64,000 nt of DNA from Methanothrix sp. Lineage in GTDB: Archaea > Halobacteriota > Methanosarcinia > Methanotrichales > Methanotrichaceae. The translations under genes were made by a program, and so were the position numbers. Positions 11,863 through 57,275 of this stretch are shown piece by piece. Every line of letters begins with the position of its first letter. The stretch's first letter is position 1. Where the stretch lies: positions 1 through 64,000 of the forward strand of contig JAXGJB010000008.1 in assembly GCA_040770465.1 (NCBI GenBank), read 5' to 3'. The notes under the pieces are model-generated. The model was not told the DNA's origin, ran no database searches, and saw only the letters and a list, made by a program, of their open reading frames with translations.

Positions 11863-13163
11863 GGCTCTTCGCTATTCCGTGTGGGTAATAGATAGCCATT
11901 TATCATCTCATGCTATCGAATAAAAAGCATGTCAATCTCACAAGAGGATCTTTTCAAGCAGGCACTGAACCTACAGCCTCCTTGGTTAATCGACTCAATC
12001 GACTTCGACGTGGAAGGGAAGCGACTCGACATCTACATAGATTTCGAACGTGGTGGCAAATTTCCATGTCCTAGATGCGGCAACTCTGAATGCGATGTTC
12101 ATGATACAATCGATAGGACTTGGCGTCATCTAAATTTCTTCCAGTTTAAAACCTACCTTCATTGTCGCGTTCCCAGAACGAAATGTGAAACCTGCGGAGT
12201 CAAACTTGTCAAGGTGCCTTGGGCAAGGAAGGGTAGCGTTTTTTCCCTCCTCATGGATTCCTTGATAATCTTAATGGCTCAGCATATGCCCGTTAAATCT
12301 GTTGCGGACCTGATCGAAGAATGCGATACCCGGATATGGCGAGTCCTGGAGCACTACGTACTAAAAGCAAGATCGGAAGAGGATTTCTCAGAGGTTGAAT
12401 CAGTAGGTGTTGATGAGACATCAAGAGCAAAAGGTCACAAATACGTATCAGTTTTCGTAGATTTGGATAAATCTAAAGTTTTATATGTATGTGAAGGAAA
12501 AGATGCTTCGGCAATTGAGTCGTTTAGAGATGACCTTGAGGATCATAATGGCTCTTTTAAAAATGTACGTAATTTCTGCTGTGATATGTCCCCCGCATTC
12601 ATATCTGGAGTCACTAGGAACTTCCCAGAAACATCAATAACATTCGATAAGTTCCATGTTATGAAGCTGATGAACCAAGCAGTGGATCAAGTGAGACGTG
12701 AAGAGCAATCCCATAACAGCAACTTGAAGCATACAAGATATATCTGGCTAAAAAATCCTGAGAAACTCACGAAAAAACAGAGATATGAATTGGGGTCTCT
12801 AAGAGATATGAGGTTAAAAACCTTGAGAGCTTACAACATCAAATTGAGCTTACGAGATTTCTGGAACTTCAAAGACCCGTTATTGGCCGAAGATTATCTG
12901 AAACGATGGTACTTCTGGGCGACACACAGCAGGTTAAACCCGGTTATTGATACCGCAAAAGCGATCAAGGGGCATTGGAAAGGAGTTCTGAACTATATAA
13001 ATACAAGGATAGATAATGGAATCTTAGAGGGAATAAATAGCCTCATTCAATCGGCAAAAGACGACGCGAGAGGATTCAGAACAACAAAGAATTTCGTCAT
13101 AACTATATATCTAAGATTAGGAAAACTCAAGTTCAACCTACCCACATGAAACAGCGAGGAGCC
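11863..13163 (+). mobile_element. ISL3-family insertion sequence, copy 1 (complete, no target duplication)
   Basis: Imperfect 23-bp IRs GGCTCTTCGCTATTCCGTGTGGG / CCCACATGAAACAGCGAGGAGCC; flanks AAGAAAAT vs TATTTATT. Confidence 0.95.
11929..13149 (+). CDS. ISL3 transposase
   Basis: CPRCG zinc finger, WRHLNFFQ, VPWA, GVDET, CCDMS, FDKFHV, NGILEGIN, ARGFR. Confidence 0.97.
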   Translation: MSISQEDLFKQALNLQPPWLIDSIDFDVEGKRLDIYIDFERGGKFPCPRCGNSECDVHDTIDRTWRHLNFFQFKTYLHCRVPRTKCETCGVKLVKVPWARKGSVFSLLMDSLIILMAQHMPVKSVADLIEECDTRIWRVLEHYVLKARSEEDFSEVESVGVDETSRAKGHKYVSVFVDLDKSKVLYVCEGKDASAIESFRDDLEDHNGSFKNVRNFCCDMSPAFISGVTRNFPETSITFDKFHVMKLMNQAVDQVRREEQSHNSNLKHTRYIWLKNPEKLTKKQRYELGSLRDMRLKTLRAYNIKLSLRDFWNFKDPLLAEDYLKRWYFWATHSRLNPVIDTAKAIKGHWKGVLNYINTRIDNGILEGINSLIQSAKDDARGFRTTKNFVITIYLRLGKLKFNLPT

Positions 13164-14339
13164 TATTTATTCCCTCTAAGATTCCGTTATCTATTCTGGT
13201 GTTAATATAGTTTATAATTCCTTTCCAATGCCCCTTGATCGCTTTTGCGGTATCAATAACCGGGTTTAACCTGCTGTGTGTCGCCCAGAAGTACCATCGT
13301 TTCAGATAATCTTCGGCCAATAACGGGTCTTTGAAGTTCCAGAAATCGCGTAGGCTCAATTTGATGTTGTAAGCTCTCATTGTTTTTAATCTCATATCTC
13401 TGAGAGATTCCAATTCATATCTCTGTTTTTTCGTAAGTTTCTCGGGATTTTTTAGCCAAATATATCTTGTATACTTCAGGTTGCTGTTATGAAATTGCTC
13501 TTCACGTCTCACTTGATCTACTGCTTGGTTCATCAGCTTCATAACATGGAACTTATCGAATGTTATTGAAGTTTCTGGGAAGTTCCTAGTGACTCCAGAT
13601 ATGAATGCGGGGGACATATCACAGCAGAAATTACGTACATTTTTAAAAGATCCTTTATGATCCTCAAGGTCATCTCTAAACGACTCAATTGCTGAAGCAT
13701 CTTTTCCTTCACATACATATAACACCTTGGATTTATCTAAATCTATGAAAACTGATACGTATTTGTGACCTTTTGCTCTGGATGTCTCGTCAACTCCTAC
13801 TGATTCAACCTCTGAGAAGTCCTCTTCCGATCTTGCTTCTAATACGTAGTATTCCAGGACTCGCCATATCCGAGTATCATGTTCTCCGATCAAGTCCGCT
13901 ACAGATTTTACGGGCATGTGCTGAGCCATTAAGATTATCAAGGAATCCATTAGGAGGGAAAAACCGCTACCTTTTCTTGCCCAAGGCACCTTGACAAGTT
14001 TGACTCCGCAAGTTTCGCATTTCGTTCTGGGAACGCGACAATGAAGGTAGGTCTTGAATTGGAAGAAGTTAAGATGACGCCAAGTCCTATCGATTGTATC
14101 ATGAACATCGCATTCAGAGTTGCCGCATCTAGGACATGGAAATTTACCACCACGTTCGAAATCTATGTGGATGTCGAGTCGCTTCCTTCCACGTCGAAGT
14201 CGATTGAGTCGATTAACCAGGGCGGCTGCAAGTTCAGTGCCTGCTTGAAAAGATCTCTTGTGAGATTGACATGCTTTTTATTCGGTAGCATGATTATGAT
14301 AAATGGCTATCTGTTACCCACACGGAATAGCGAAGAGCC
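13164..14339 (-). mobile_element. ISL3 copy 2, defective: last ~124 bp and right IR missing, two 1-bp deletions near the 5' end
   Basis: Left IR ends at 14339, ATG at 14272; CAAGAGAT vs CAAGAGGAT and GGAAGGAAG vs GGAAGGGAAG relative to copy 3; cut after GILEGIN by the right IR of copy 1. Confidence 0.93.
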
Positions 14340-15974: not shown

Positions 15975-16214
15975 TCTCCAACAAAAGCCAAAAATTCGGC
16001 ATTATCTGGGCGAGCCGGCAGAGGTCCATGCAGTGGCCGCCCAGATCGGATAAACGGAAAAGGCGGATGCAGGACGTCGCCGTCATGCCGTCGGAGTGCC
16101 TTTCTCTCCTTCCCGACGTTAAGATCTTTTCTTAGTATTTCATACCATTTGTGAAAGTATCTCAAACAGATACAAATCGTCTCGCTCCAAAATAAGCCTT
16201 CGAGGTGTTGAGAC

Positions 16215-16541
16215 GTGGAAGTTTTAGAGACGAGACTTTATAAAGGGGCTTCGGAGATCGACGAGGTCTTCGGCGTCGTATCGAACATGATCTTCGGCCC
16301 CAGCTTCGACTGGGAGATATCCGACTCGGCCGAAGATAAGCTGGTGATGAAGATCACCGGATGCCCCCTTCTGAAGGAGGCAAACGGGAAGGGACGAGAC
16401 CCCGAAGAGCTTTCCGAAGCTTGTCAGGCCTACTGCAGATCTGCCGTGAAGAACCTAAATCCCAGGTGCAGTCAGGTGTACACCAAGAGGATGTGCACCG
16501 GGGACGGCTACTGCGAAAACGTGATCTCCATCCGAGGATAG
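16215..16541 (+). CDS. Hypothetical Cys-containing protein (DUF6125/V4R-like, possibly a fragment)
   Basis: GAGGTG RBS with GTG start; ITGCP...CQAYC...KRMCTGDGYC. Confidence 0.55.
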   Translation: MEVLETRLYKGASEIDEVFGVVSNMIFGPSFDWEISDSAEDKLVMKITGCPLLKEANGKGRDPEELSEACQAYCRSAVKNLNPRCSQVYTKRMCTGDGYCENVISIRG

Positions 16542-16581
16542 ACGGCTCATTCGCACCCAAAAACCGCCAAAATGAAGGGAT

Positions 16582-16609
16582 GGCCGGGAGACCCAACGGG
16601 TCTCCGGCC
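16582..16609. terminator. GC-rich hairpin between convergent genes
   Basis: GGCCGGGAGACCC-AAC-GGGTCTCCGGCC followed by T-rich sequence. Confidence 0.5.
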
Positions 16610-16632
16610 GCGCATTTTCTTACAAATTTTGA

Positions 16633-17421
16633 CTATCGCGGGCGGCTGTATATGTACCAGTAGATAGCGCCCACGAACAGACCGCCGCCGACGATGTTAC
16701 CCAAGGTCACCGGGATCAGGTTGACGGTGAAGAACTGAGCCCATGTGACGTCGGCTCCGTACATTATCCCCGAGGGGATGAAGAACATGTTGGCGATGCT
16801 GTGCTCAAACCCGATGGCCACGAAGGCCATAATCGGAAACCAGATCCCCAGAACTTTGCTTACCACGTCGTCGGAGGCGATGGCGAGCCAGACCGAGAGG
16901 CAGACCAGCCAATTGCAGCCAACTCCCTTGAAGAAGAGGGGCCAAAAGCCCTGGGAGACCTTCGCCTCGGCTATTCCGGTTATGGTGCCAAGCCAGGGAT
17001 CAGAGGCCAAAAGGCCTGTGATATAGGTCAGGAAGAAGACCACAAATATCGAGCCTATGAAGTTTCCGACGTAAGATACCGTCCAGTTTCGAGCAAGCCC
17101 CGCCCACGAAGCCTTCCTGGAGAGGACCGCCGGAATGCAGCAGGCTGTATTGCCCGTAAAGAGCTCCGCTCCGGCCACCACCACCAGGATCAAACCCACG
17201 GGGAAGACCGCTCCGAAGATGAACTTCTGCAGTCCGGGGTTGTCAACCCGAAGGCCGGGAACTCCACCGCCGACGATGACCGCCAAAAGCCCGCCGAAGG
17301 CGATGAAGGCTCCGGCCAGAAAGCCGAGAGCCAGAAGTGGTCCAAAGGCCATCTCGATCTTGTTACATCCGATGTTGTCGACCGAGCAGGTCGTATCTTT
17401 TGGTGATTTGAATCCCATCAA
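16633..17421 (-). CDS. fdhC: Formate/nitrite transporter (FdhC/FocA family)
   Basis: LAGAFIAFG, FPVGL, GAELFTGN, GNFIG, GVGCNWLVCL, GFEHSIANMF, TLGNIVGG. Confidence 0.93.
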   Translation of the reverse strand: MMGFKSPKDTTCSVDNIGCNKIEMAFGPLLALGFLAGAFIAFGGLLAVIVGGGVPGLRVDNPGLQKFIFGAVFPVGLILVVVAGAELFTGNTACCIPAVLSRKASWAGLARNWTVSYVGNFIGSIFVVFFLTYITGLLASDPWLGTITGIAEAKVSQGFWPLFFKGVGCNWLVCLSVWLAIASDDVVSKVLGIWFPIMAFVAIGFEHSIANMFFIPSGIMYGADVTWAQFFTVNLIPVTLGNIVGGGLFVGAIYWYIYSRPR

Positions 17422-17548
17422 TCATTCTCCCTAAAGTCTCTGATAAAAATGAATCAATGGCGGCCTCCCCGCATTTTGAGAGGGCCAGAGGAGCCCAGAT
17501 ACGAGCCCTTGGCCAGGAACGTGCAGAGAACGCCAGCCAGGTGGGGCC

Positions 17549-18982
17549 TCAGCGGTTCCAAGACCCGTCCTCTCGGAGCCAACGATCGATATCTTCTGCA
17601 GACGTCTTCCCCGCCCCCATGGCGCTGATGACGGTGGCCCCGCCGGTGGTGATGTCCCCTCCGGCCCAGACGCCCTCCCGGGTGGTTCTGCCGTTCTCGT
17701 CCACCACCAGGGTGCCCCACTTTGTGATATCGAGACCCGGGGTGTTGGCAGGTACCAGGGGATTGGGGATCGTGCCCACGGCGATGATGACGGTGTCGAC
17801 GTCCACCACGTGCTCGGACCCCTTCTCGGCCACGGGCCTTCGCCTGCCGCTGGCGTCCGGCTCGCCCAGAACCATCTTCACCACCTCCATGCCAGCGACC
17901 CTTCCGCGGTCGTCTCCCAAAAATCGGGTGGGGTTAGTCAAAAAGTCGAAGATGACGCCCTCCTCTTTGGCGTTCTCGATCTCCTCGAGCCTTGCGGGCA
18001 TCTCCGCTTCGGATCGGCGGTAGACGACGTGAACCTCATCTGCTCCGAGCCTCACGGCACACCGAGCCGCGTCCATGGCTACGTTTCCGCCTCCGACCAC
18101 CGCCACCTTATTCCCCTGCCTGATGGGGGTGTCGTACTCGGGAAACTTGTAGGCCTTCATGAGGTTGACCCGGGTCAGATACTCGTTGGCGGAGTAGACC
18201 CCGTTGAGGTTCTCGCCGGGGACGTTGAGAAAACGCGGCGCTCCAGCGCCGATCCCGAGGAATACCGCGTCAAAATCGTTCTTCAGCAGCTCGTCGACCT
18301 GGACCAGCCTTCCTACCACCGAGTCCAGCTCGAACTCGACGCCCAGGCTCTTGACGTAATCGACCTCGGACCGAACGATATCTTTTGGGAGCCGAAACTC
18401 GGGAATCCCGTATATCAGAACCCCCCCGGCGTCGTGGAGCGCCTCGAAGACAGTGACATTGTGGCCCCTCTTGGCGAGATCGGCGGCGCAGGTGAGGCCA
18501 GCGGGTCCCGCCCCCACCACGGCCACCTTTTTTCCGGTGGGTGGCAAAGCTTCCGCCACCTGGCCTGACCCGCCCTCTTCCGGCGCATTTCTTGACTCCC
18601 AGTCGGCCACAAACCTCTCCAGACGGCCGATGGCGATGGGGGCCCCTTTCTTCCCCAGGACGCACAGGCTCTCGCACTGGACCTCCTGGGGGCAGACCCT
18701 TCCGCATATGCCTGGCAGGCTGTTTTTGGCCTTGATCGTCCTGACCGCATCTTCCATCTCGCCGTCCCGGACGGCCTTGATGAAAGCCGGGATGTCAATT
18801 CCCACGGGGCAGCCTTCCATGCATTTGGGCTTCTTACACTCTAGGCACCTATCGGCCTCTTCGATGGCCTGCTCTTCGGAATAACCACGAGCCACCTCGA
18901 GGAAGTTTCGACTTCTCACCTCGGGAGACTGCTTGGGCATGGAAACCCGATTCAATTTCAGCTTCTTTTCCTTACCAGACAT
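17549..18982 (-). CDS. NfnB/SudA-like (GltD-like) NADP(H)-binding FAD/2x[4Fe-4S] subunit
   Basis: RCLEC...CMEGCPV, CGRVCPQEVQCE, GAGPAG, YGIPEFRLPK, GGGNVAMD, YRRS, AGGD..TG..TV. Confidence 0.9.
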   Translation of the reverse strand: MSGKEKKLKLNRVSMPKQSPEVRSRNFLEVARGYSEEQAIEEADRCLECKKPKCMEGCPVGIDIPAFIKAVRDGEMEDAVRTIKAKNSLPGICGRVCPQEVQCESLCVLGKKGAPIAIGRLERFVADWESRNAPEEGGSGQVAEALPPTGKKVAVVGAGPAGLTCAADLAKRGHNVTVFEALHDAGGVLIYGIPEFRLPKDIVRSEVDYVKSLGVEFELDSVVGRLVQVDELLKNDFDAVFLGIGAGAPRFLNVPGENLNGVYSANEYLTRVNLMKAYKFPEYDTPIRQGNKVAVVGGGNVAMDAARCAVRLGADEVHVVYRRSEAEMPARLEEIENAKEEGVIFDFLTNPTRFLGDDRGRVAGMEVVKMVLGEPDASGRRRPVAEKGSEHVVDVDTVIIAVGTIPNPLVPANTPGLDITKWGTLVVDENGRTTREGVWAGGDITTGGATVISAMGAGKTSAEDIDRWLREDGSWNR

Positions 18983-19172
18983 CGTATCCCGCTTCGATAT
19001 TGTGGCTCAGTCGGCGTTTCAGATGACCCCGCGCTCCGACGTCAATTTCATGATGGCGCTTCAGTTCAGGGAGCCGGCATATCGCCGACCTTCAATCCAT
19101 CCGCCCCTCTGACGGAGACTGCCGCCATCGATATTTCTTCGTAAGGGCTGATGGATTCAACCTATGCCTCGA

Positions 19173-19190
19173 TATTTAAATCTTTTCGGT
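19173..19190 (-). promoter_or_regulatory. BRE-TATA promoter for the nfnB-like/fdhC unit
   Basis: ACCGAAAAGATTTAAATA on the minus strand. Confidence 0.65.
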
Positions 19191-19500
19191 TTGCTCTTCC
19201 GCCGGCATAACCCGATCCTTCAGCATGCTTTTGGCCGTCCGATCCATCTTTAATCGGACTGGACTGGCGTGATGGTTGCTTTCTTGAGGTTGTTGCATAA
19301 ATATCGATATCGTTTGTCACATTTAGATAATTCATTTGCCGTTTGCCGGACGGCTTTTTCCTATTCATTTATACATAAACTTTCGCATCCTGCTGCACGG
19401 ACCGCTCCATTTCTTCCAAATATGCCACCAATAAATCTCATTTCAGCTCTAAATTAGGAGCAACTTAGAAATATGACCTGCAATCTCCTAAAATAACGCG

Positions 19501-22260
19501 GTGGTGAAAGTGGACGAGATCACCCTAACCATTGATGGAAAAAAGGTCAGGACTCGGGAGGGTTCCACGGTTCTAGAAGCGGCCCGAAAGGCCGGGATAT
19601 ATATACCCGCCCTCTGCGACCATCCAGACTTGAAGCCTATCGGCTCATGTAAGCTCTGCATCGTCGAGATAGATGGGAAAGATGTCTATCCCACCTCCTG
19701 CACAGCCCTCGCCGAAGAGGGGATGGTGGTGAGGACGAAGACCGACGAGCTCCAGAAGATGCGGCGCCACACCCTCGAGATGCTCCTGGCCCTGACAAAC
19801 CACCCCACCAGCTGCCTCTTCTGCGACCGGAAGGACGAATGCACCGAGATGCGGGAGTGCATGAGAAAGTTCCCCATGGCGGTGGGGTGTAAATACTGTC
19901 CCAACGACGGCCGGTGCGAGCTTCAGACGGCTGTGGAGTATGTAGGGCTTGAGAGGATAAGATACGCCACCGAATATCGCAACCTTCCGGTTCTGAGGGA
20001 GCCCTTCTTCGACCGGGATTACAACCTCTGCATCCTCTGCAGCCGCTGCGTCAGGACCTGCCAGGAGGTGAGAGGGGAGGGGGTCCTCGTCTTCGATGTG
20101 AACTACCACCAGCAACATTCCATAGGACCGATATCCCTGACCGAGTCCGAATGCAAGTTCTGCGGAGCCTGTGTCGACGTCTGTCCCACCGGAGCCCTCT
20201 TCGCCAGGTCCGAGAGGTGGGGGAAGCCCGAAGAGTTCGTCACCACCACCTGCCCCTTCTGCGGCGTGGGCTGCATGATGGAGATCGGGGTACAGGACGG
20301 TCACATCGCCCAGATTAGGGGCAAGAGAGGGGAGACGCCGAACAACGGTCAGCTATGCGTCAAAGGGAGGTTCGGCCTCGACTTCGTAGAGAGCCCCGAA
20401 CGGCTGAAGACGCCTCTGATCCGCAAAGATGGCAAGCTCGTCCCCGCCACCTGGGAGGAGGCGATGGACCTCATCGTCGAGAGGTTCTCCCGATCCAAAG
20501 GCGACCGTTTTGCCCTCCTCTCCTCTGCCAAATGCACCAACGAGGAGAACTACCTCGCCCAGAAGCTCTCGCGTCTGGTGATGGAGACAAACAACGTCGA
20601 CCACTGCGCCCGGCTCTGTCACGCCTCCACCGTCGCGGCCTTGGCGACGGCCTTCGGGAGCGGGGCCATGACCAACTCCATCGAGGAGCTGAAGGACCCA
20701 GGCTGCATATTGATAATCGGATCCAACACCACCGAGCAGCATCCGGTGATCGCCCTCAAGATCAAAGAGGCGAAGAAGAGGGGCGCGAAGATCATCGTTG
20801 CCAACCCCCGATGGATCGAGCTCTGCAAGTTCGCCGACATCTGGCTGAGGCAGGAGCCCGGAACTGACGTCCCCCTGACCATGGGCATCTGCAAGGTCAT
20901 CCTGGATGGAGGGCTCATCGACGAGGAGTTCATCAAGGAGCGGTGTGAGGGGTTCGAAGAGTTCAGAGACTCTCTCGCCGACGTATCTCTGGAAGAGGTC
21001 GGAAGGATCACCGGCGTTGAGGTGGAGCTGCTGAGGAAGGCGGCCCGGATGTACGCCGAGAACGGCCCCTCTTCTATAGTCTACTCCATGGGCATAACCC
21101 AGCACTCTCACGGCACCGAGAACATCCTCGCCCTCGCCGACCTCGCGATGATGACCGGAAACCTCGGCAAGCCCGCCAGCGGGATAAATCCTCTCCGGGG
21201 CCAGAACAACGTCCAGGGAGCATGCGACATGGGCGCCCTTCCCAACGTCTTCCCCGGATATCAGGCGGTGAACAACGACGATCTCAGAGCGAAGTTTGAG
21301 GGAAGGTGGGGCAAAAAGCTCCAGAAGAAGCCAGGTCTTACTCTGATGGAGATCTTCAACGCAATCCACGACGACGAGATCGACGTCCTGTACATCATCG
21401 GCGAGAACCCCAGGATCAGCGATCCCGACTCGACCCACGTCACCGAGGCCCTGGAGAAGGTGGACTTTCTGGTGGTCCAGGAGATATTCCTCTCGGAGAC
21501 CGCAAGCCTTGCCGACGTGGTATTGCCCGCGACATCCTTCGCCGAAAAGGATGGGACCTTCACAAATACGGAACGAAGGGTCCAGCGGGTCAGAAAGGTG
21601 CTGGATCCTCCAGGAGAGGCCTGGCCCGACTGGATGATCATTTCGGAGATCGGGAGGAGGATGGGCTACGGAGAAGAGTTCTCCTATTCGGACCCCTCGG
21701 AGATCATGGACGAGATCGCCTCCCTCACCCCCAGCTACGGCGGGATAAATTATGGGAGGATCGACGAGGTCGGCCTCCAGTGGCCCTGCCCCACCCCTGA
21801 CCATCCCGGCACCCCTTACCTTCACAAAGCCGGATTCACGAGAGGAAAGGGTCTCTTTTCGGTGGTCGGTTACCGCCCCTCAACGGAGCTTCCCGACGAG
21901 GAGTACCCGTTCATCCTCACCACCGGAAGGGTCCTGTGCCACTTCCACACCGGCACCATGACCCGGAAGGTGCCGGGGCTGAACTATCTCCGCAACGAAG
22001 AGCTGGTGGAGATCAACCCCGCGGATGGGAAGGCTCTGGGGATAGAGGACGGCGATCTGGTGGAGGTGACCTCGAGGAGGGGGACGGTAAGGGCGAAGGC
22101 GAAGATGACGGAGAAGTCGTCGGAAGGCGTAGCCTTCATGACCTTCCACTTTGCCGAGACGCCCACCAACGTCCTCACCAACCCCGCCCTCGACCCCGTG
22201 GCCAAGATACCCGAGCTGAAAGTGTGTGCCGTAAAGCTCTCTAAAGCGGTTGGTGATTGA
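19501..22260 (+). CDS. fdhF: Formate dehydrogenase alpha subunit (Mo/W-bisPGD, Cys-type) with N-terminal [2Fe-2S] and [4Fe-4S] domains
   Basis: IPALC..CKLC, CILCSRCVRTC, CKFCGACVDVCP, TCPFCGVGC, LCVKG, DHCARLCH, PLRGQNNVQG, GTFTNTERRVQ, LTTGR..HFHTG. Confidence 0.93.
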   Translation: MVKVDEITLTIDGKKVRTREGSTVLEAARKAGIYIPALCDHPDLKPIGSCKLCIVEIDGKDVYPTSCTALAEEGMVVRTKTDELQKMRRHTLEMLLALTNHPTSCLFCDRKDECTEMRECMRKFPMAVGCKYCPNDGRCELQTAVEYVGLERIRYATEYRNLPVLREPFFDRDYNLCILCSRCVRTCQEVRGEGVLVFDVNYHQQHSIGPISLTESECKFCGACVDVCPTGALFARSERWGKPEEFVTTTCPFCGVGCMMEIGVQDGHIAQIRGKRGETPNNGQLCVKGRFGLDFVESPERLKTPLIRKDGKLVPATWEEAMDLIVERFSRSKGDRFALLSSAKCTNEENYLAQKLSRLVMETNNVDHCARLCHASTVAALATAFGSGAMTNSIEELKDPGCILIIGSNTTEQHPVIALKIKEAKKRGAKIIVANPRWIELCKFADIWLRQEPGTDVPLTMGICKVILDGGLIDEEFIKERCEGFEEFRDSLADVSLEEVGRITGVEVELLRKAARMYAENGPSSIVYSMGITQHSHGTENILALADLAMMTGNLGKPASGINPLRGQNNVQGACDMGALPNVFPGYQAVNNDDLRAKFEGRWGKKLQKKPGLTLMEIFNAIHDDEIDVLYIIGENPRISDPDSTHVTEALEKVDFLVVQEIFLSETASLADVVLPATSFAEKDGTFTNTERRVQRVRKVLDPPGEAWPDWMIISEIGRRMGYGEEFSYSDPSEIMDEIASLTPSYGGINYGRIDEVGLQWPCPTPDHPGTPYLHKAGFTRGKGLFSVVGYRPSTELPDEEYPFILTTGRVLCHFHTGTMTRKVPGLNYLRNEELVEINPADGKALGIEDGDLVEVTSRRGTVRAKAKMTEKSSEGVAFMTFHFAETPTNVLTNPALDPVAKIPELKVCAVKLSKAVGD

Positions 22261-23180
22261 ATATGTACCAGATAGTGGAGAAGGAGGTTCTCGTCCCCAA
22301 CATAATCCGCCTCAAGATAAAGGCCCCGAAGATCGCCCGAGCTGCCCGCCCCGGCCAGTTTGTGATCATCAGGGTGGACGAGACCGGCGAGAGGATGCCC
22401 ATGGGCCTCGCGGGCTGGGACGAGGAGGAAGGTACCATCGAGATCGTATTCTACGTCCTCGGGACCAGCACCATGAAGCTCGGCACTCTGAGGGAGGGCG
22501 ACTCCATAATGAACCTCGCAGGTCCTCTGGGCAAACCAACAGAGATCGAGAACTTCGGCACCGTGATCTGCGCCTGCGGCTGCTTCGGCATCGGACCCAC
22601 CATGCCTCTGCTAAAGGCCCTCAAGGAGGCCGGAAACCGCGTCATAACCGCGGTGGAGGGGCGGAGCCGGGAGTTCATCTTCTGGGAGGATAAGTTGAGG
22701 GCCGAAAGCGACGAGCTCTACGTCCTTGCGGGAAGCGGCGGCTGTGGCGAGGATGGGTGGACAAACGACTTCATAAGAAGGCGGCTTGAAGGGGGAGAGA
22801 AGGTCGACAGGATCTTCGTCCACGGCTGTCCCTTCATGATGATGGAGGTCTCCAAGGCCAGCGAGCCCTACGGCGTTAAGACGATCGTCAGCCTCACCCC
22901 CCTGATGGTGGACGGGACGGGGATGTGCGGAGCCTGCCGAGTCGAGGTCGGGGGCGAGACAAAGTTCGCCTGTGTCGACGGCCCCGACTTCGACGGCCAC
23001 CAGGTCAACTGGGAGACCCTCGCCCTAAGGCTTCGCCAGTTCATCCCCGAGGAGGATCGATCTGCCATGCTCTGGGAGCGGGATAACTGGCACAAGCTGG
23101 TGGAGGCGGCCCCCCAGGCTCTGAACCCCACCCTGGGCAGAAAAGAAGGGGAGAAGAAGAAAGCTGCCTTTTCAATCTAG
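22257..23180 (+). CDS. NfnA/SudB-like (PyrK family) FAD/[2Fe-2S] subunit, atypical
   Basis: PGQFVII, GPLGKP, MVDGTGMCGACRV..FACVDGP; directly follows the fdh stop. Confidence 0.88.
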   Translation: MNMYQIVEKEVLVPNIIRLKIKAPKIARAARPGQFVIIRVDETGERMPMGLAGWDEEEGTIEIVFYVLGTSTMKLGTLREGDSIMNLAGPLGKPTEIENFGTVICACGCFGIGPTMPLLKALKEAGNRVITAVEGRSREFIFWEDKLRAESDELYVLAGSGGCGEDGWTNDFIRRRLEGGEKVDRIFVHGCPFMMMEVSKASEPYGVKTIVSLTPLMVDGTGMCGACRVEVGGETKFACVDGPDFDGHQVNWETLALRLRQFIPEEDRSAMLWERDNWHKLVEAAPQALNPTLGRKEGEKKKAAFSI

Positions 23181-23289
23181 GTGCCCCGGGCGGTCCCCCA
23201 TTACGGGGATGATTCGGGCAGAAGATGCCTCATATTTGCTTCATCGACACCCAGGGGTTATGTGACCCGGCCGCCTGATATTAGATATT

Positions 23290-23523
23290 CTATCTGACGA
23301 GCTCGATCATCGAGGCGAACTTGTGGGGCGAAGCCGTGGCGGCCTCCACGTCGGCCATGATCCCCCTGCTTTCGGCATCGTTCAGGTAAAACCATGCCGC
23401 TTCCTCCAGGTTGTCTATCGCCTCTTCGGGAGTGGCACCAAAACTTGAGATTCCCAGCTCGGGGCATTTCGAGATGTAAGCTCGATCCCCTTCCCACACT
23501 TCAGCCGTCAGGTTAAGTCTCAT
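23290..23523 (-). CDS. hicB: HicB-family antitoxin (orphan)
   Basis: YISKCPELGISSFGATPEEAIDNLEEA. Confidence 0.8.
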   Translation of the reverse strand: MRLNLTAEVWEGDRAYISKCPELGISSFGATPEEAIDNLEEAAWFYLNDAESRGIMADVEAATASPHKFASMIELVR

Positions 23524-23671
23524 CTCTTCATTCCTCCAAATCGAACTTCAGCAATTATATGATGTGATTGTTTCGTTTATATATCCATTATCCATTTGAT
23601 GGCAGTCTTTGACCTCTCCGGTGCAATTTGGAGGGAAAAGGATATATTCACCCCATCAGGCACGAACTTTC

Positions 23672-23693
23672 CTTCGCGCCGATCGGCGCGAAG
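23672..23693. repeat. Perfect 22-bp palindrome
   Basis: CTTCGCGCCGATCGGCGCGAAG equals its own reverse complement. Confidence 0.9.
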
Positions 23694-23870
23694 CCTGGCT
23701 GCTGGGCGAGAAGAGAGGTTTCGCCGTAGAAAACGCATGATCCCAAAAGATTGGCTATGCTGCGCCGCAAATTGCCTTGAAAAAAGAGGTTATTGAGGGA
23801 GGAAGGATAGATCCTCCCCGGCCATATGCAAGGCCTTTCAGGATCGACTAAATGGACGAGATGGACGGAT

Positions 23871-25127
23871 CTAGGTCATCTTGATCCAGCCGCGGATCTT
23901 CATCGCCTCGACGACACGGTTTACGGCGACCACGTAAGCTGCCTGACGCATGTTTATGTCGTAAGCCTTGGATGTGTCGAGGACGTTGTGATAAGCTCTG
24001 GTCATCCTGTCGTCCAGGCGCTTGTAGACGTCTTCAACGTCCCAGCAGTACCGATCGATGTTCTGGACCATCTCGAAGTAGGAGACGGTGACGCCGCCGG
24101 CGTTGCAGAGGAAGTCGGGGATGACGTGCACGCCATTTTTGTGGAGGATATCGTCCGCCTCGGGGGTGGTCGGTCCGTTGGCCAGCTCTGCGACGATCTT
24201 CGCCTTGACGTTCGGCGCATTATCCTTGGTGATGACGTTCTCGAGGGCTGCGGTGATCAGGATATCCACGTCCAGCTCTATCAGCTCCTCGTTGGATATC
24301 TTCTGAATTCCCGGAGCGTTTACAACCGACTTGGTATCCGCCTTGACGCTGCAGGCGAGCTCGAGGTCCAGGCCGTCCTTGTTGTATATGCCGCCCTTGG
24401 AATCGCTGATGGCCACCACTTTGGAGCCGAAGAGGTTTCTGACGAGGAATCCTGCATGGCATCCGGCGTTTCCGTAGCCCTGGATGGCAACGGTCGCCTT
24501 GGAGAGGTCTATTCCGAGCTCCTTTGCCGCCTCCCGGATGGTGTACATGCCGCCGCGGGCCGTCGCATCGTCACGGCCGCAGGAGCCACCGATGCAGACC
24601 GGCTTTCCGGTGATGCAGCCGAACTCGTTGCTCCCGGTGAGCTTCGAGTACTCGTCCATCATCCAGGCCATCGTCTGGGGGGTGGTGTAAACGTCGGGGG
24701 CGGGGACGTCCTTGTTGGGACCTATGAACTGCCAGATCTTGTCGATGTAACCTCGGCTCAGACGTTCCAGCTCATTTTCTGAGAGCTCCTTGGGGTTGCA
24801 GATCACTCCGCCCTTTCCGCCGCCGAGGGGGAGATCAAGGAGAGAGCATTTCCAGGTCATCCATGCGGAAAGAGCTCTCACGGTGTCGATCGTCTCTTCG
24901 GGGTGGAACCTGATGCCGCCCTTGGTCGGTCCCTTGGCGTCGTTGTACTGGACCCTGAACCCCTTGAAGACCTTCGTGCTGCCGTCGTCCATCCTGACCG
25001 GAATGGAGACGTGGAGTTCACGCATGGGGTTTCGAAGTACCTCACGGACGTCGTCGTTCAACTTCAATATTTTTGCACAGTTGTCCAGCTGCTGTTGAGC
25101 TATTGCAAATGGGTTGAGTTCTGCCAT
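23871..25127 (-). CDS. gdhA: Glutamate dehydrogenase
   Basis: GPTKGGIRFHP, MTWKC, GGGKGG, DVPAPDV, TGKP, QGYGNAG, ELANGP, PDFLCNAGGVTVSYFE. Confidence 0.95.
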   Translation of the reverse strand: MAELNPFAIAQQQLDNCAKILKLNDDVREVLRNPMRELHVSIPVRMDDGSTKVFKGFRVQYNDAKGPTKGGIRFHPEETIDTVRALSAWMTWKCSLLDLPLGGGKGGVICNPKELSENELERLSRGYIDKIWQFIGPNKDVPAPDVYTTPQTMAWMMDEYSKLTGSNEFGCITGKPVCIGGSCGRDDATARGGMYTIREAAKELGIDLSKATVAIQGYGNAGCHAGFLVRNLFGSKVVAISDSKGGIYNKDGLDLELACSVKADTKSVVNAPGIQKISNEELIELDVDILITAALENVITKDNAPNVKAKIVAELANGPTTPEADDILHKNGVHVIPDFLCNAGGVTVSYFEMVQNIDRYCWDVEDVYKRLDDRMTRAYHNVLDTSKAYDINMRQAAYVVAVNRVVEAMKIRGWIKMT

Positions 25128-25712: not shown

Positions 25713-27302
25713 TCAGCCGTCTAGGATATCCTCGGCGACGTCCCGATAGGCGTCCATGACGTAAGGGATCCCGGAGACCTTGGCCGCCTCTTCGGTGAGG
25801 GCCATAACGTCGTTTCTGGATATGGTCTTCAGGCTGAAGTTCCTGCTTCCGGCCATCAGCTGCTGCAGGCCGATCGTGAACCTCTGGGTGTAGGTGTAGA
25901 TGCCCATGGCCCCAAGGGGTATCTTCTCCGCCTCTCTTCCATACTTATCGGCCAGCTCCTCATAGGTTACGAAGAGCTGCTTTGCCGTGGTTCCGTACTT
26001 GGAGACGGACTTTGGAAGCTCTCCCGCCTCGATCCACTTCTGGATGTTCTTTCCGACCATCCCCGGGATCATCAGGGCTCTGCCCATGCAGACAGCCTTG
26101 AAGTAGGGGGCGCCCATGGCCATGGCTTTGAAGACGCCGTCCTCGGAGGAGAAGCCGCCTGCCATGGCGAGGTCTGGCACCCTCATACCCTTCTTGCTGA
26201 GCTTCTCGGCGAATTCGTACGCCAGGGCCTGGAGATAGAAGGTGGGGATTCCCCACTCGTTCATCATGGGCCAGGGGCTCATCCCCGTCCCGCCCGGGGC
26301 GCCGTCGATGGTGAGAAGGTCGATCTTCGCCTCGGACCCGTAGCGGAGGGCCATGGCAAGCTCCGTCATGGAGTAAGCGCCGGTCTTGAGGGTGATCCTC
26401 TTGAACCCCAGGCCTCTGAGCCTGTCGACCTCCTCGAGGAATCCCTCTTTGGTGACGAAGCCGAGCCGGGAGTGCCTCTCGAACTCCTTGATGGCGCCGT
26501 CCTTGAAGGCCATCTGGACGTCCTTCTTGGAGGGGTCGGGCCTCACTATGTAGCCCCTCTTCTGCAGCTCCAGGGCCCTTTCCAGGGATCGAACCTTGAT
26601 CTCGCCTCCGATGCACTTTGCGCCCTGACCCCACTTCAGCTCCAGGGTGTCCAGCTCGTGCTTGGCGGAGACGTACTCGGCGGTGCCAAGCCTGGTGTCC
26701 TCGACGTTCATCTGGACCAGGATCTCGCCGTAACCCTCGTTGAACTGCTTGTAGGTCTCGATCCTTCTGTCCATCTCCGGAGACTTGGAGATCTTGCCCT
26801 TGCCGTCCAAAACAAGACCGGGGTCGACTCCGCAGACGTTCTCGCCGCAGACCAGGGTGATGCCGGATATGGCGGCACCGATGGCGAAGTGCTCCCAGTT
26901 GGCGCCGGCGATATCTGTGGAGCCGAGGGCTCCGGTGAAGATGGGGACCTTCATCTTGACCTTTCGATCCCATCCGTACTCGGTCTCGGTATCCACCTCG
27001 TTGAATACGGCGGTGTCAGGGTTTCCATCGACCCCTTCGGGCAGGCCCTTGGCGCCGACGGCGTAACCCTGGATGTTTATGTGGGAATAGTCAAGGGGAT
27101 AGTCCTTGTCTGCCCCCGCAGTGATCTCGCCGAAGGGACCGGGGTAAAGCACTTCCCGACCCCTGAACGAGGATAACCATATATCACAACCGCCCCTGCA
27201 GCCGTCGACACAGCGGGTGCAGATCCCTGACATGGGGGCGACGTTTCTCGACCGGTTGTAAGTCCCGATCGCTTCGTTGGCGTTTGGCTGTCGGAGATTC
27301 AT
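25713..27302 (-). CDS. FMN-binding glutamate synthase family protein
   Basis: N-terminal CTRCVDGCRGGC, ELKWGQGAK..GGE, IDGAPGGTG, AGG, MGRA. Confidence 0.88.
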   Translation of the reverse strand: MNLRQPNANEAIGTYNRSRNVAPMSGICTRCVDGCRGGCDIWLSSFRGREVLYPGPFGEITAGADKDYPLDYSHINIQGYAVGAKGLPEGVDGNPDTAVFNEVDTETEYGWDRKVKMKVPIFTGALGSTDIAGANWEHFAIGAAISGITLVCGENVCGVDPGLVLDGKGKISKSPEMDRRIETYKQFNEGYGEILVQMNVEDTRLGTAEYVSAKHELDTLELKWGQGAKCIGGEIKVRSLERALELQKRGYIVRPDPSKKDVQMAFKDGAIKEFERHSRLGFVTKEGFLEEVDRLRGLGFKRITLKTGAYSMTELAMALRYGSEAKIDLLTIDGAPGGTGMSPWPMMNEWGIPTFYLQALAYEFAEKLSKKGMRVPDLAMAGGFSSEDGVFKAMAMGAPYFKAVCMGRALMIPGMVGKNIQKWIEAGELPKSVSKYGTTAKQLFVTYEELADKYGREAEKIPLGAMGIYTYTQRFTIGLQQLMAGSRNFSLKTISRNDVMALTEEAAKVSGIPYVMDAYRDVAEDILDG

Positions 27303-45347: not shown

Positions 45348-46649
45348 GGCTCTTCACTATTCCGTGTGGGTAACAGATAGCCATTTATCATAATCATGCT
45401 ACCGAATAAAAAGCATGTCAATCTCACAAGAGGATCTTTTCAAGCAGGCACTGAACTTGCAGCCGCCCTGGTTAATCGACTCAATCGACTTCGACGTGGA
45501 AGGGAAGCGACTCGACATCCACATAGATTTCGAACGTGGTGGTAAATTTCCATGTCCTAGATGCGGCAACTCTGAATGCGATGTTCATGATACAATCGAT
45601 AGGACTTGGCGTCATCTTAACTTCTTCCAATTCAAGACCTACCTTCATTGTCGCGTTCCCAGAACGAAATGCGAAACTTGCGGAGTCAAACTTGTCAAGG
45701 TGCCTTGGGCAAGAAAAGGTAGCGGTTTTTCCCTCCTAATGGATTCCTTGATAATCTTAATGGCTCAGCACATGCCCGTAAAATCTGTAGCGGACTTGAT
45801 CGGAGAACATGATACTCGGATATGGCGAGTCCTGGAATACTACGTATTAGAAGCAAGATCGGAAGAGGACTTCTCAGAGGTTGAATCAGTAGGAGTTGAC
45901 GAGACATCCAGAGCAAAAGGTCACAAATACGTATCAGTTTTCATAGATTTAGATAAATCCAAGGTGTTATATGTATGTGAAGGAAAAGATGCTTCAGCAA
46001 TTGAGTCGTTTAGAGATGACCTTGAGGATCATAAAGGATCTTTTAAAAATGTACGTAATTTCTGCTGTGATATGTCCCCCGCATTCATATCTGGAGTCAC
46101 TAGGAACTTCCCAGAAACTTCAATAACATTCGATAAGTTCCATGTTATGAAGCTGATGAACCAAGCAGTAGATCAAGTGAGACGTGAAGAGCAATTTCAT
46201 AACAGCAACCTGAAGTATACAAGATATATTTGGCTAAAAAATCCCGAGAAACTTACGAAAAAACAGAGATATGAATTGGGATCTCTCAGAGATATGAGAT
46301 TAAAAACAATGAGAGCTTACAACATCAAATTGAGCCTACGCGATTTCTGGAACTTCAAAGACCAGCTATTGGCGGAAGATTATCTAAAACGTTGGTACTT
46401 TTGGGCGACACACAGCAGATTAAAACCAGTTATTGATACCGCAAAAGCGATCAAGGGGCATTGGAAAGGAATTATAAACTATATTAACACCAGAATAGAT
46501 AACGGAATCTTAGAGGGAATAAATAGCCTCATTCAATCAGCAAAAGACGACGCAAGAGGATTCAGGACGACAAAGAATTTTGTTATAACTATATATCTTA
46601 GATTAGGAAAACTCAAGTTCAATCTACCCACATAAAACAGCGAGGAGCC
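45348..46649 (+). mobile_element. ISL3 copy 3 (complete; flanks do not match each other)
   Basis: IRs GGCTCTTCACTATTCCGTGTGGG / CCCACATAAAACAGCGAGGAGCC; flanks ATTTTATT vs TTTTTTTT. Confidence 0.95.
45415..46635 (+). CDS. ISL3 transposase
   Basis: 406 aa, near-identical to 11929-13149. Confidence 0.97.
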   Translation: MSISQEDLFKQALNLQPPWLIDSIDFDVEGKRLDIHIDFERGGKFPCPRCGNSECDVHDTIDRTWRHLNFFQFKTYLHCRVPRTKCETCGVKLVKVPWARKGSGFSLLMDSLIILMAQHMPVKSVADLIGEHDTRIWRVLEYYVLEARSEEDFSEVESVGVDETSRAKGHKYVSVFIDLDKSKVLYVCEGKDASAIESFRDDLEDHKGSFKNVRNFCCDMSPAFISGVTRNFPETSITFDKFHVMKLMNQAVDQVRREEQFHNSNLKYTRYIWLKNPEKLTKKQRYELGSLRDMRLKTMRAYNIKLSLRDFWNFKDQLLAEDYLKRWYFWATHSRLKPVIDTAKAIKGHWKGIINYINTRIDNGILEGINSLIQSAKDDARGFRTTKNFVITIYLRLGKLKFNLPT

Positions 46650-51494: not shown

Positions 51495-53018
51495 TCAACC
51501 CTGAAGTGCCTCTTTGAAGATCTTCAAAAGGAGATCGCGATCTTCACTGGTCAGCTCCTCGCCCGACCCGATCCTCTGAATGATCTCCGGCTGCCTTTCC
51601 CGAAGGGCCTTTCTTATCGCCTCCTTGGCCGAGGCGACCTCTCCCAGGGGAACTTTGTCCAGAAGCCCCGAAGTCACCGCCAGGAGGACCGCGATCTGCT
51701 CGGGGGCGGGGATCGGCTCGAACTGGGGCTGCTTCAGAACCTCCCGGATCCGTTGCCCCCGCTCCAGGGTCTTTCTCGTATCCTCGTCCAGCCTGGTCCC
51801 AAACCGGGTATAGGCCTCCAGGTCCTCGAACTGCGAGTAGGTGAGGCGGAGGTCGCCTGCCACTTTGGAGTACGCCGGAAGCTGGCTTTTTCCTCCCACC
51901 CGAGAGACGGACATGCCCACGTCGACCGCCGGAAGGACCCCCTTCCCGTAAAGCTCGGGGGAGAGGTAGATCTGGCCGTCGGTGATGGAGATGAGGTTTG
52001 TGGGGATGTAGGCGGAGATGTCTTGGGCCTGGGTCTCGATGATGGGAAGGGCGGTGAGGGAGCCTCCCTCTTTGAGGTTTGTGGCCCTCTCCAGGAGCCT
52101 GGAATGGATGTAGAAGATGTCCCCCGGAAAAGCCTCCCTCCCCGGCGGGCGGCGGAGGAGGAGGGAGAGCTCCCGGTAGGATCGGGCGTGGCGGGTCAGA
52201 TCGTCGTATACGATCAATACGTCCCGCCCCCCCTCCACGAAGTGCTCGGCGATGGTGGTGGCGGAGTAGGGGGCTATGTAGTTGATCCCGGGCGGATCGT
52301 CGCCGGTGGCCACTACGGCGACTGAGTTCTCCATGGCCCCGTTCTTGCGGAGATCTGCGATCGTCTTCGCCACCTCCGACTTCTCCTGGCCGATGGAGGA
52401 GTAGACGCAAACTACGTCCTTGTCCCTCTGGTTGATGATGGCGTCGACGGCGAAGGCGGTCTTCCCGGTCTGTCGGTCGCCGAGGATCAGCTCCCTCTGG
52501 CCCCGGCCGATGGGGACCATGGCGTCCACCGCCATCACCCCCGTCTCCAGGGGGACGTTCACCGGAGCCCGATCCATGATCGCCGGGGCCTCTCGCTCGA
52601 CGGACCTTCTCTCCGAGGTCGAGATCGGCTCGCCCTCGTCCAAGGGATCGCCCAGAACATTCACCACCCTGCCCAGGAGCTCATCTCCCACCGGCACCTC
52701 CATCACCTTTCCGGTCCGGTGGACCACCTGCCCGGCCCTGACCTTCTCGCTCTTGTCGAGGAGGATGACCGCCACCTCCTCGGGGTCGAGGTTGAAGGCG
52801 ATCCCCAGCCGATCGCCGGGAAAGACGACCACCTCCTCAGACCGAACGTGAGGCAGCCCCCTGATCCGGGCGATCCCCTTTCCCACGAAGGATACGACCC
52901 CGATCTCCTCGAACTTCAGCTGGAGCTTTTTTCTCTCCAGAGTATGGCTTACGGCGCTGAAGGCGTAGTTCAGGGCATCGCCGACCGCCTCGTCCCCCTT
53001 CTTCTTCCTCTCCATCAT
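51495..53018 (-). CDS. atpA: N-ATPase alpha subunit
   Basis: [54 protein letters not shown]. Confidence 0.97.

Positions 53019-55527: not shown

Positions 55528-57275
<1,748 letters not shown>

Follow-up and report, generated by a model that had tools for sequence, protein, structure and literature searches.

A formate dehydrogenase gene linked to a remodelled Nfn-type pair: a candidate NADP(H)-linked enzyme system in Methanothrix

Which protein exchanges electrons with the long formate dehydrogenase (FDH) encoded in the 64,000-bp stretch of Methanothrix sp. DNA studied here (contig JAXGJB010000008.1, hereafter the window)? Its gene, fdhA, lies between the two halves of an Nfn-type flavoprotein pair, nfnB-like and nfnA-like, and fdhC, encoding a formate channel, follows nfnB-like. 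The original prediction took these four genes for an undescribed three-subunit complex that couples formate/CO2 to NADP(H) and ferredoxin. All four were found where it had placed them, and their identities were upheld by open reading frame (ORF) calls and by the Pfam and NCBIfam profiles used for family assignment (Table 1). The ORF coordinates also confirm two divergent units, nfnB-fdhC and fdhA-nfnA, which share an intergenic region of 518 bases and split the Nfn subunits around fdhA. We infer, at a little short of an even chance, that the four genes would encode one cytoplasmic NADP(H)-linked FDH-Nfn enzyme system, with its binding, substrates, wiring and direction deduced from what follows. 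This reading starts from gene identities, intact sites, dedicated paralogy, conserved linkage, joint movement into bacteria and presence in RNA, all of which are observed.

The FdhA protein scores 830.3 bits with TIGR01591 (cut-off 666.25). Its residues 1–245 comprise an N-terminal 2Fe-2S site and a NuoG-like 4Fe-4S chain and are followed by the pterin domain; none of the four genes encodes a stand-alone Fe-S protein, the Fe-S module being the N-terminus of FdhA. FdsA of Rhodobacter capsulatus (6tg9_A) is matched at full length (718 bits across residues 7–916), and the best PDB match of the catalytic domain is the F420-type FDH 9t1s (738 bits, residues 245–915). Alignment to solved FDHs bears out that the active site is intact: Cys373-His374 aligns with the Sec/Cys-His pair (Sec, selenocysteine) of 9t1s_L, Arg566 is found in RGQNNVQG, and there is no internal stop in the reading frame. 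Because these residues are intact and no in-frame stop occurs, FdhA is judged to be a live Cys-type FDH. An insertion of 29 residues with four Cys, located in the His-cluster region of FdhA, was rejected as a possible marker of the Nfn partnership, since FdhAs paired with GltD-like proteins have it too.

A stretch at 20614–20672, which begins 3 bases before the Cys373 codon, resembles SECIS_3 weakly (21.2 bits against a gathering score of 63, E 0.54), and its predicted fold is no better than that of shuffled sequences (z −0.25). It was rejected as a working element and is read as coding-sequence likeness, probably to Sec-type fdhA genes. Orthologous fdhA genes with in-frame stops were seen at L024:6001–6765 (in the N-terminal module) and G025:C54:77080–79833 (one TAA), and fdhA at L095:4483–7121 reads in three frames. 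These cases represent either decay or assembly errors.

The NfnB-like protein contains the Fer4_20 and Pyr_redox_2 domains. It scores 587 bits to NfnB of Thermotoga maritima (4ylf_B) and 534 bits to NfnI of Pyrococcus furiosus (5jca_L), whereas its score to true GltD (6s6s_G) is only 287 bits. Diagnostic features of Nfn (the cluster motifs with the Glu ligand, the flavin-N5 Arg, the NADP Arg-Arg and the ERxPxT Thr of the small subunit) were taken from the part of an Nfn review that describes them (PMC6405883), and the Arg residues of NfnB were assigned by alignment to 5jca_L and 4ylf_B. Both cluster motifs, RCx2Cx4Cx3CPV and GRVCPQExQCx3C, are present in the protein from the window. All 25 FDH-linked NfnB rows of the alignment retain the former motif, the CPQE with its Glu ligand and the Arg-Arg motif for the 2'-phosphate of NADP (YRRS); the flavin Arg stands in PEFRLP in 24 rows and in PEFRMP in one. 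CPQE is absent from the GltD-like partners of Dehalococcoidales FdhA (22 of 22 rows). In a FastTree phylogeny of 58 of the 74 rows (16 GltD-like rows were dropped and 6 kept as an outgroup), the FDH-linked rows form a clade of their own (24 rows and L059, support 0.968). Judged by these residues, the NfnB-like protein has every hallmark of a bifurcating NADP(H) flavin site, and since both its crossed-potential FAD site and its pocket for NADP(H) are those of true NfnB, NADP(H) would be one of the substrates.

The NfnA-like protein scores 360 bits with NF004862 (cut-off 220) and 283 bits to the small subunit of P. furiosus NfnI (5jca_S). Its 2Fe-2S motif with the Asp ligand, DGTGMCGxCRx10CV, is present in all 27 FDH-linked NfnA rows. 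The flavin-N5 Thr of ERxPxT is present in none of them (Gly in 25, Ser in 2), whereas 30 of the 32 other rows have it. The GGGxG nucleotide loop, which belongs to the NAD(H) domain in the Fnr family, reads CGCFG in 26 and AGCFG in one of the 27 FDH-linked rows, and GGGVG in 26 of the 32 others. FDH-linked NfnA-like proteins also share a conserved C-terminal extension, WERxNWHKL. The 27 rows, which include three proteins without an adjacent FdhA (L093, L094, L096) and one with a broken FdhA (L095), form a single clade in an IQ-TREE phylogeny of 59 rows (SH-aLRT 97). Rows from Ammonifex and Dehalococcoidia branch first within it, its sisters are an orphan paralogue from contig C35 of the host genome and then L059, and 29 bacterial NfnA proteins as well as NfnA from contig C37 of the host fall outside. 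The NADP(H)/bifurcating side thus looks untouched and the NAD(H) side remodelled; because the flavin-N5 Thr is lost and the nucleotide loop changed, NADH is an unlikely substrate of the small subunit. The original prediction had treated the pair as plain NfnAB; the family membership stands, and the small subunit proves altered.

The host assembly (2.54 Mb, 94.85% complete) was searched as a whole with profiles for paralogues and other possible partners. It carries a second, canonical nfnA-nfnB pair with adjacent genes on contig C37, with 46% (NfnA) and 61% (NfnB) identity to the FDH-linked pair. The split pair is therefore an extra, dedicated paralogue and not the housekeeping one, and both of its subunits belong to separate clades. 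The orphan NfnA-like paralogue mentioned above (G000:C35:11942–12895) has 53% identity. Its orthologues in two Methanothrix genomes directly follow an FdhA-like protein of about 740–800 amino acids (L142:3985–7036; L143:5199–8379), in which the N-terminal Fe-S module is intact and the segment with the Cys-His active site is deleted. No NfnB-type partner of this paralogue was found. Since such a dead scaffold would be useless as a free enzyme, its place before the sister NfnA points to a contact between FDH and the small subunit. A second long FdhA (FdhA2; G000:C11:16319–19126, L007:7320–10127) has 58% identity to the one in the window (FdhA1) and an intact Cys-His; it stands between an Ogg glycosylase and a Cdd1-family gene, with no Nfn neighbours. 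The Fe-S modules of FdhA1 and FdhA2 are 69% identical and the catalytic parts 54%, which gives weak support to a common docking partner. In many Methanothrix genomes, including that of locus L035 from the largest genus, the C11-type paralogue is found in tandem just upstream of FdhA1, and one partner may be served by either of the two as its catalytic subunit.

No other partner was found. The absence of FdhB, NuoF/HylB and hydrogenase genes from the window, noted originally, holds. The possibility that FdhA uses an FdhB or HylB encoded elsewhere was pursued in the whole assembly: the NuoF-type profile PF01512 had no match there, while control genomes matched, no FdhB (PF04422/PF04432) stands beside FdhA, and the sole PF04432 match (contig C20) has a pyruvyl transferase gene on one side and a polysaccharide synthesis gene on the other. 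Searches for hydrogenases gave one weak partial match to PF00374 on contig C1 and none in the assembly to the FeFe hydrogenase profile PF02906. Because neither NuoF nor an FDH-type FdhB was found, the Nfn-like pair is the only candidate diaphorase beside the long FdhA on record. The genome also contains three short FdhA-like genes (about 680–760 amino acids) at G000:C1:89238–96039 and G000:C13:29827–37832, amid FwdC-like (GXGXG), FwdB/D-like and amidohydrolase FwdA-like genes together with FdhD, a setting which we take to resemble an arrangement of the Fdh-Hdr-Fmd type.

The conservation of the linkage was assessed by tblastn with the four proteins in 80 loci, which came from a scan of one genome per species. 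In all 21 loci with an FdhA of at least 70% identity, NfnA-like is located directly downstream of FdhA. NfnB-like is present in 19 of these (divergent upstream in 17, collinear downstream in 2), the remaining two having no upstream DNA, and an FNT-family gene in 15. A survey of 105 genomes of the family found an NfnA-like orthologue (at least 62% identity) in about 78 and a long FdhA in 80. Comparison of coordinates placed NfnA-like less than 200 bases from an FdhA of the class with at least 63% identity in 59 of the 104 other family genomes, next to an FdhA of the 57–58% class in 4 more, and 830–1800 bases away in 3 more; in one genome (G042) the ordinary arrangement is interrupted by a contig end. 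Linkage of FdhA and NfnA is thus far beyond chance, and the co-occurrence on which the original prediction depended is conserved. The closest relatives' loci are from Methanothrix harundinacea / Methanocrinis, in agreement with the Methanothrix-type host assumed there. The split around fdhA is real in the window; it is a local arrangement, as relatives carry FdhC-FdhA-NfnA-NfnB or FdhA-NfnA-NfnB in one string (L012, L031, L039). The likely start of nfnA-like is ATG 22263, two bases past the fdhA stop, with GGTGAT at 22251–22256 inside fdhA. Hence the two genes are predicted to be translationally coupled, with the ribosome site of nfnA within the end of fdhA.

The string FdhA-NfnA-NfnB was found in metagenome-assembled genomes (MAGs) of Ammonifex (L039) and Dehalococcoidia (L031), where the flanking genes (NusB, Asp23, UvrD/PcrA, RNase PH) are bacterial; at L131, FdhA lies 544 bases from NfnA-NfnB. 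Gene order and flanks show that the three genes moved together into bacteria. Such cases are rare: in a sample of 400 genomes from the phylum of the Ammonifex MAG, the FDH-linked type was seen in that MAG only, and all 29 other fetched loci were plain nfnAB. In 400 sampled Chloroflexota genomes, FdhA stands beside the pair in G106 and G758 only, of which G758 is one further case. L059, with NuoE-NuoF-FdhA divergent from NfnB-NfnA, is a bacterial hybrid. In about 24 Dehalococcoidales-type loci a GltD-like protein with 40–45% identity to NfnB-like precedes FdhA, and NfnA is absent; these GltD-like proteins are often fused to a 2Fe-2S module or to a full FdhA-like Fe-S module. Loci of this kind include L042, L049, L051, L061, L066, L069, L076 and others. 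The FdhAs of L047, L048, L051, L059, L066, L070 and L076 show an alignment gap at the catalytic position, which is read as a stop codon for Sec. A natural fusion of FdhA with a partner was not found among the frames examined. Two candidates were rejected: the 1325-amino-acid open frame of G005 consists of FdhA2 and an aminotransferase behind it, and that of 542 amino acids in G021 encodes an NfnA paralogue extended at its N-terminus by a segment matching no family.

The locus is represented in RNA. Four metatranscriptome runs from one anaerobic-digester study contained 45–73% of the sampled words, and seven others (X5–X11) next to none. The RNA contigs cover all four genes, and the transposase stretch 12534–14135 is near zero. 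The fdhA/nfnA junction is bridged by an RNA contig at 21677–23015 (X2, record 13), and the 127-base gap between nfnB-like and fdhC, both on the minus strand, by one at 17369–18140 (X1, record 2).

In the single-enzyme reading that we favour, FdhC would let formate in or out, and FdhA would interconvert formate and CO2 at a Mo or W pterin site with Cys373. The N-terminal 2Fe-2S/4Fe-4S chain of FdhA would exchange electrons with the dedicated NfnAB-type pair rather than with a NuoF- or F420-type partner. NADP(H) would be handled by the NfnB-like large subunit, whose clusters would react with a third carrier. This carrier is most likely ferredoxin and probably not NAD. A three-partner enzyme and not a plain two-partner one is suggested, because a complete small subunit with its 2Fe-2S site has been retained. 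All of the changes affect the small subunit, and in three paralogue lineages a gene like fdhA is followed by one like nfnA; FdhA may therefore dock to the small subunit or next to it and so replace NAD(H), an arrangement that we put forward tentatively and consider doubtful. In this methanogen, for which formate is not a growth substrate, the system would probably provide NADPH from formate, or else formate for the synthesis of purines. Drawing NADPH from external formate would explain the formate channel. PurP is a formate-dependent family, and the genome has two PurP-family genes with no PurT found, which leaves room for formate supply. In its strongest form the proposal is a fourth kind of Nfn-family bifurcating enzyme, in which a live W/Mo FDH would stand in place of NAD(H) and link formate/CO2, NADP(H) and ferredoxin or another carrier, as the main route from formate to anabolic NADPH in Methanothrix-type methanogens. 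So worded, it is unlikely to be right in full.

The components of such a system are known separately. Both Nfn-like subunits are close homologues of NfnAB (587 and 283 bits), with the cluster motifs, the FAD Arg of the large subunit and the NADP Arg-Arg kept. The differences from NfnAB are the missing ERxPxT Thr, CGCFG in place of GGGxG, the tie to a catalytic FDH and a formate channel, and the genes not being adjacent. NfnII of P. furiosus (Xfn, 5VJ7) is an Nfn paralogue reported to have a differing nucleotide domain in the small subunit and no NAD-dependent activity (PMC6405883). It matches both proteins (511 and 182 bits), with the small subunit being nearer to that of NfnI (283) than to that of NfnII (182), and, unlike here, no linked FDH is described in the available part of PMC6405883.

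NADP-dependent FDHs with an NfnB- or GltD-like subunit have precedents, and gene linkage places the present FDH among systems in which the alpha subunit is encoded together with such a protein. SfrB of Moorella is GltD-like, and the Dehalococcoidales loci with a GltD-like protein (with its Fe-S module) and FdhA look like the Moorella type, with the GltD-like protein lacking CPQE. Fdh3 of Thermococcus onnurineus (TON_0538–0543) is described as a purified NADP-dependent tungsten FDH with an NfnB-like FAD/NADP subunit that also reacts with ferredoxin (PMC8965080). Like the present locus, its operon combines a cytoplasmic Cys-type FDH, an NfnB-like subunit and a formate transporter; in contrast, the description from which the comparison is drawn gives it Fe-S proteins of its own, Fdh3G1 and Fdh3G2, and no NfnA-like subunit, and mentions no NuoG-like module at an N-terminus. 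The NADP-FDH of Moorella thermoacetica (sfrB2, sfrA2, fdhF3), for which the accessible part of PMC13040438 gives gene names and masses, likewise combines an FDH with an NADPH-binding beta subunit; it differs in having no NfnA-like subunit.

Stn/NfnABC (Sporomusa ovata 8OH5; 9BOV, 9N5U) joins an NfnB-like domain to a NuoG/FDH-like Fe-S scaffold, according to the description in PMC10482914, and StnC (8oh5_C) matches both the NfnB-like protein and FdhA residues 134–591. Because the NfnB-like domain of StnC feeds a NuoG-like cluster chain, wiring between FDH and NfnB has a structural precedent. In Stn, however, the domains are fused, the FDH-like part is non-catalytic, the flavin is non-bifurcating and a HydBC-type core is needed, whereas the present locus has a live FDH and separate genes, and PF01512 was not found in the genome. 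The alpha subunits of FdsABG (6TG9) and HylABC-FdhF2, types of NAD-linked or bifurcating FDH, are likewise of the long form and begin with a 2Fe-2S/4Fe-4S module. Their docking partner, an FMN module of the NuoE/NuoF type, is not encoded here. In the F420-dependent FdhAB (9T1S) the catalytic domain is alike, but the N-terminal Fe-S module is missing and FdhB is needed. The claim of an undescribed system consequently has to be narrowed. A search of the main texts of open-access papers and preprints yielded no FDH, from Methanothrix or any other organism, whose gene is accompanied by those of a full NfnAB pair, and PMC7382037 describes, in its accessible part, a different Methanothrix fdhA cluster, with hdrABC; NADP-FDHs with an NfnB- or GltD-like subunit are, in the portions available, already described (PMC8965080, PMC13040438). 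Each of the components has been described, and so has the idea of an FDH that carries an NfnB-like NADP module; what is new is their combination with a remodelled small subunit, which is widespread in one methanogen family and rare elsewhere.

Several observations weigh against a single enzyme. In G032, G034 and G045, NfnB-like and NfnA-like are divergent, and FdhA is gone from between them. In G036 no FdhA precedes NfnA-like; FdhC is its neighbour, and the fetched stretch contains no NfnB-like. G077 has NfnA-like on its own. All five genomes carry a long FdhA elsewhere, so the Nfn-like pair can persist unlinked to FdhA; in one more genome (G083) FdhA is read in three frames. The FDH-linked clades were labelled by identity to the query and not independently, and the NfnA tree is a quick search. 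The RNA contigs come from one study and show presence in RNA libraries rather than transcript structure or level. A complex prediction for NfnB-like (residues 10–472), NfnA-like (1–290) and FdhA (1–247), with 20–21 orthologue rows each, scored 0.04 and 0.00, the mark being 0.32, and speaks neither for nor against binding. The reported potentials are −430 mV for formate (in the portion of PMC5861303 available) and −500 mV for ferredoxin and −370 mV for NADPH (in that of PMC6405883). Since the ferredoxin and formate arms are both downhill to NADPH, there is no obvious energetic gain from coupling. The 2Fe-2S cluster of P. furiosus NfnI is reported at +80 mV (PMC6405883, in part), and a cluster of this potential would not suit CO2 reduction. 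Finally, Fdh3 of T. onnurineus is described as having NADP activity without an NfnA-like subunit (PMC8965080, in part).

The last point leads to the simplest alternative, one complex that is a plain two-partner NADP-dependent FDH. Electrons would pass from FdhA through the FAD of NfnB-like to NADP+, NfnA-like would be a wire or a structural part, and nothing would be bifurcated. Fdh3 and the Moorella enzyme, whose beta subunit is encoded by sfrB2, are precedents for an NfnB/GltD-like subunit working without bifurcation, as far as the accessible accounts go (PMC8965080, PMC13040438), and StnC is described as an NfnB-like fold in which bifurcation was lost (PMC10482914, in part). The altered nucleotide loop and flavin contact of NfnA-like are as expected of a non-catalytic site, and in some 24 bacterial loci a GltD-like protein is the sole partner of FdhA. 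Yet the features tied to bifurcation, CPQE and the Arg of PEFRLP, are kept in 25 of 25 FDH-linked rows, while the Dehalococcoidales GltD-like proteins lack CPQE in 22 of 22, and selection has maintained the whole small subunit, 2Fe-2S motif included, in 27 of 27. We regard this alternative as unlikely, though serious. Somewhat weaker is the case for no stable complex at all, where FdhA would swap electrons with ferredoxin, the Nfn pair would work on the ferredoxin and NADP pools, and the linkage would reflect a common pathway from formate to NADPH. Such pool coupling would account for the five genomes with NfnA-like and no adjacent FdhA (NfnB-like being beside it in three), for the solitary second FdhA on contig C11, and for the reaction of Fdh3A alone with ferredoxin, as described in the accessible part of PMC8965080. 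It is quite improbable in view of the NuoG-type module of the long FdhA, which docks a flavoprotein in solved relatives (6tg9 FdsA), the predicted fdhA/nfnA translational coupling, the joint move of three genes into bacteria and the remodelling of the small subunit specifically in the FDH-linked clade; the dead FdhA-like scaffold before the sister NfnA paralogue would moreover have no use as a free enzyme.

If the Nfn core works normally, FdhA could also sit on its low-potential (ferredoxin) arm, with NADPH driving the reduction of CO2 to formate at the expense of a higher-potential acceptor at the small subunit. Potentials speak for this arrangement, as the NfnB clusters at −513 and −718 mV match formate/CO2 at −430 mV better than does the 2Fe-2S at +80 mV (from the passages available in PMC6405883 and PMC5861303). 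So do StnC, whose NfnB-like part, fused to a NuoG/FDH-like domain, feeds the cluster chain of the latter (PMC10482914, in part), and a need for formate suggested by the two PurP-family genes. However, it is NfnA, and not NfnB, that shows the sequence changes and whose gene is tightly coupled to fdhA, no candidate high-potential acceptor was identified, and an internal supply of formate needs no formate channel, all of which makes this arrangement very improbable. We disfavour, as hardly credible, the remaining possibility that NfnB-like belongs, as the small subunit, to an archaeal glutamate synthase that serves the GltB-like and glutamate dehydrogenase genes close by, and that its position beside fdhA is an accident of synteny. 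NfnB-like does score above the cut-off of TIGR01316 ('NADPH-dependent glutamate synthase'; 602 bits, cut-off 471.75), and the glutamate dehydrogenase and Glu_synthase-domain genes just downstream are syntenic in 11 and 7 loci. But this synteny does not extend beyond the genus and its close relatives, while linkage of FdhA, NfnA and NfnB is family-wide and also found in bacteria; besides, NfnB-like is far closer to true NfnB (587 bits) than to true GltD 6s6s_G (287), and it always travels with an NfnA-like partner.

Methanothrix and its relatives are the dominant acetate-to-methane organisms and account for much of the methane of biogenic origin. Formate use by these organisms has been called controversial (in the accessible part of PMC7382037), and the balance of NADPH, F420 and ferredoxin in Methanothrix is described as unsettled, with F420 dehydrogenases missing (PMC9304861, in part). 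The module is a conserved, RNA-represented candidate link from formate to NADPH in about three quarters of the family genomes searched. If the single-enzyme reading is true, the module would be the first case of a catalytic metalloenzyme joined to an Nfn-type core, as well as a natural experiment on the function of the small subunit once NAD binding is gone. NADPH-linked CO2/formate enzymes are also of practical interest, as noted in the available part of PMC8965080.

Table 1. Genes and putative promoter elements of the module (coordinates refer to the window)
Feature	Coordinates	Strand	Details
Formate channel (FdhC-type, FNT family)	16633–17421	−	262 amino acids; PF01226 and TIGR00790
NfnB/SudA-like large subunit	17549–18982	−	477 amino acids; predicted two 4Fe-4S sites, FAD, NADP(H) site
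TATA-like block, likely promoter of the nfnB-fdhC unit	19171–19182		in 10 of 10 regions of the intergenic alignment; putative promoter role
Second TATA-like block, likely promoter of the fdhA-nfnA unit	19368–19380		ends 120 bases before fdhA; partly conserved; putative role
Long-form FdhA, Cys type	19501–22260	+	919 amino acids; TIGR01591, 830 bits
NfnA/SudB-like small subunit	22257–23180	+	307 amino acids from the first start, TTG 22257; NF004862

The channel protein scores 295.5 bits with PF01226 and 269.7 bits with TIGR00790 (cut-off 232.3), which assigns it to the FNT transporters, and it is below the FocA equivalog cut-off (196 vs 290). In the intergenic region, the TATA-like block nearer to nfnB-like is invariant in all ten aligned regions and lies within a 39-base conserved stretch at about 19153–19191; the RNA contigs of three runs end at 19137 and those of the fourth at 19132. 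No palindrome or operator shared by the two units was found in the 10-locus alignment of the 518-base region, which contains two separate TATA-like blocks. The leaders of nfnB-like (18983–19045) and fdhA (19458–19500) are strongly conserved among the ten loci and match no Rfam family. An Rfam scan of positions 16000–24000 revealed no riboswitch, the only match being the weak one to SECIS_3.

Just downstream of the module are genes for a glutamate dehydrogenase (23871–25127, minus strand) and a Glu_synthase-domain (archaeal GltB-like) protein (25713–27302, minus strand). Their synteny is limited to the genus and near relatives (11 loci for the dehydrogenase, 7 for the synthase-like gene), and neither is found in Methanothrix proper. 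Both neighbours are presumably NADPH users, which would suggest a fit with a module that supplies NADPH. Elsewhere in the window, ISL3-family transposase ORFs were found at 11929–13149 (plus strand), 13138–13989 (minus strand) and 45415–46635 (plus strand); two of them encode 406 amino acids, and the one at 13138–13989 is shorter and overlaps the end of 11929–13149 on the opposite strand. The stretch at 12–14 kb has 40.6% G+C, compared with 55–65% around it. Two ATP synthase alpha/beta-family genes are located at 51495–53018 and 55899–57272, both on the minus strand, one with the ATP-synt_ab_C domain and the other with a V/A-type C-terminal domain.

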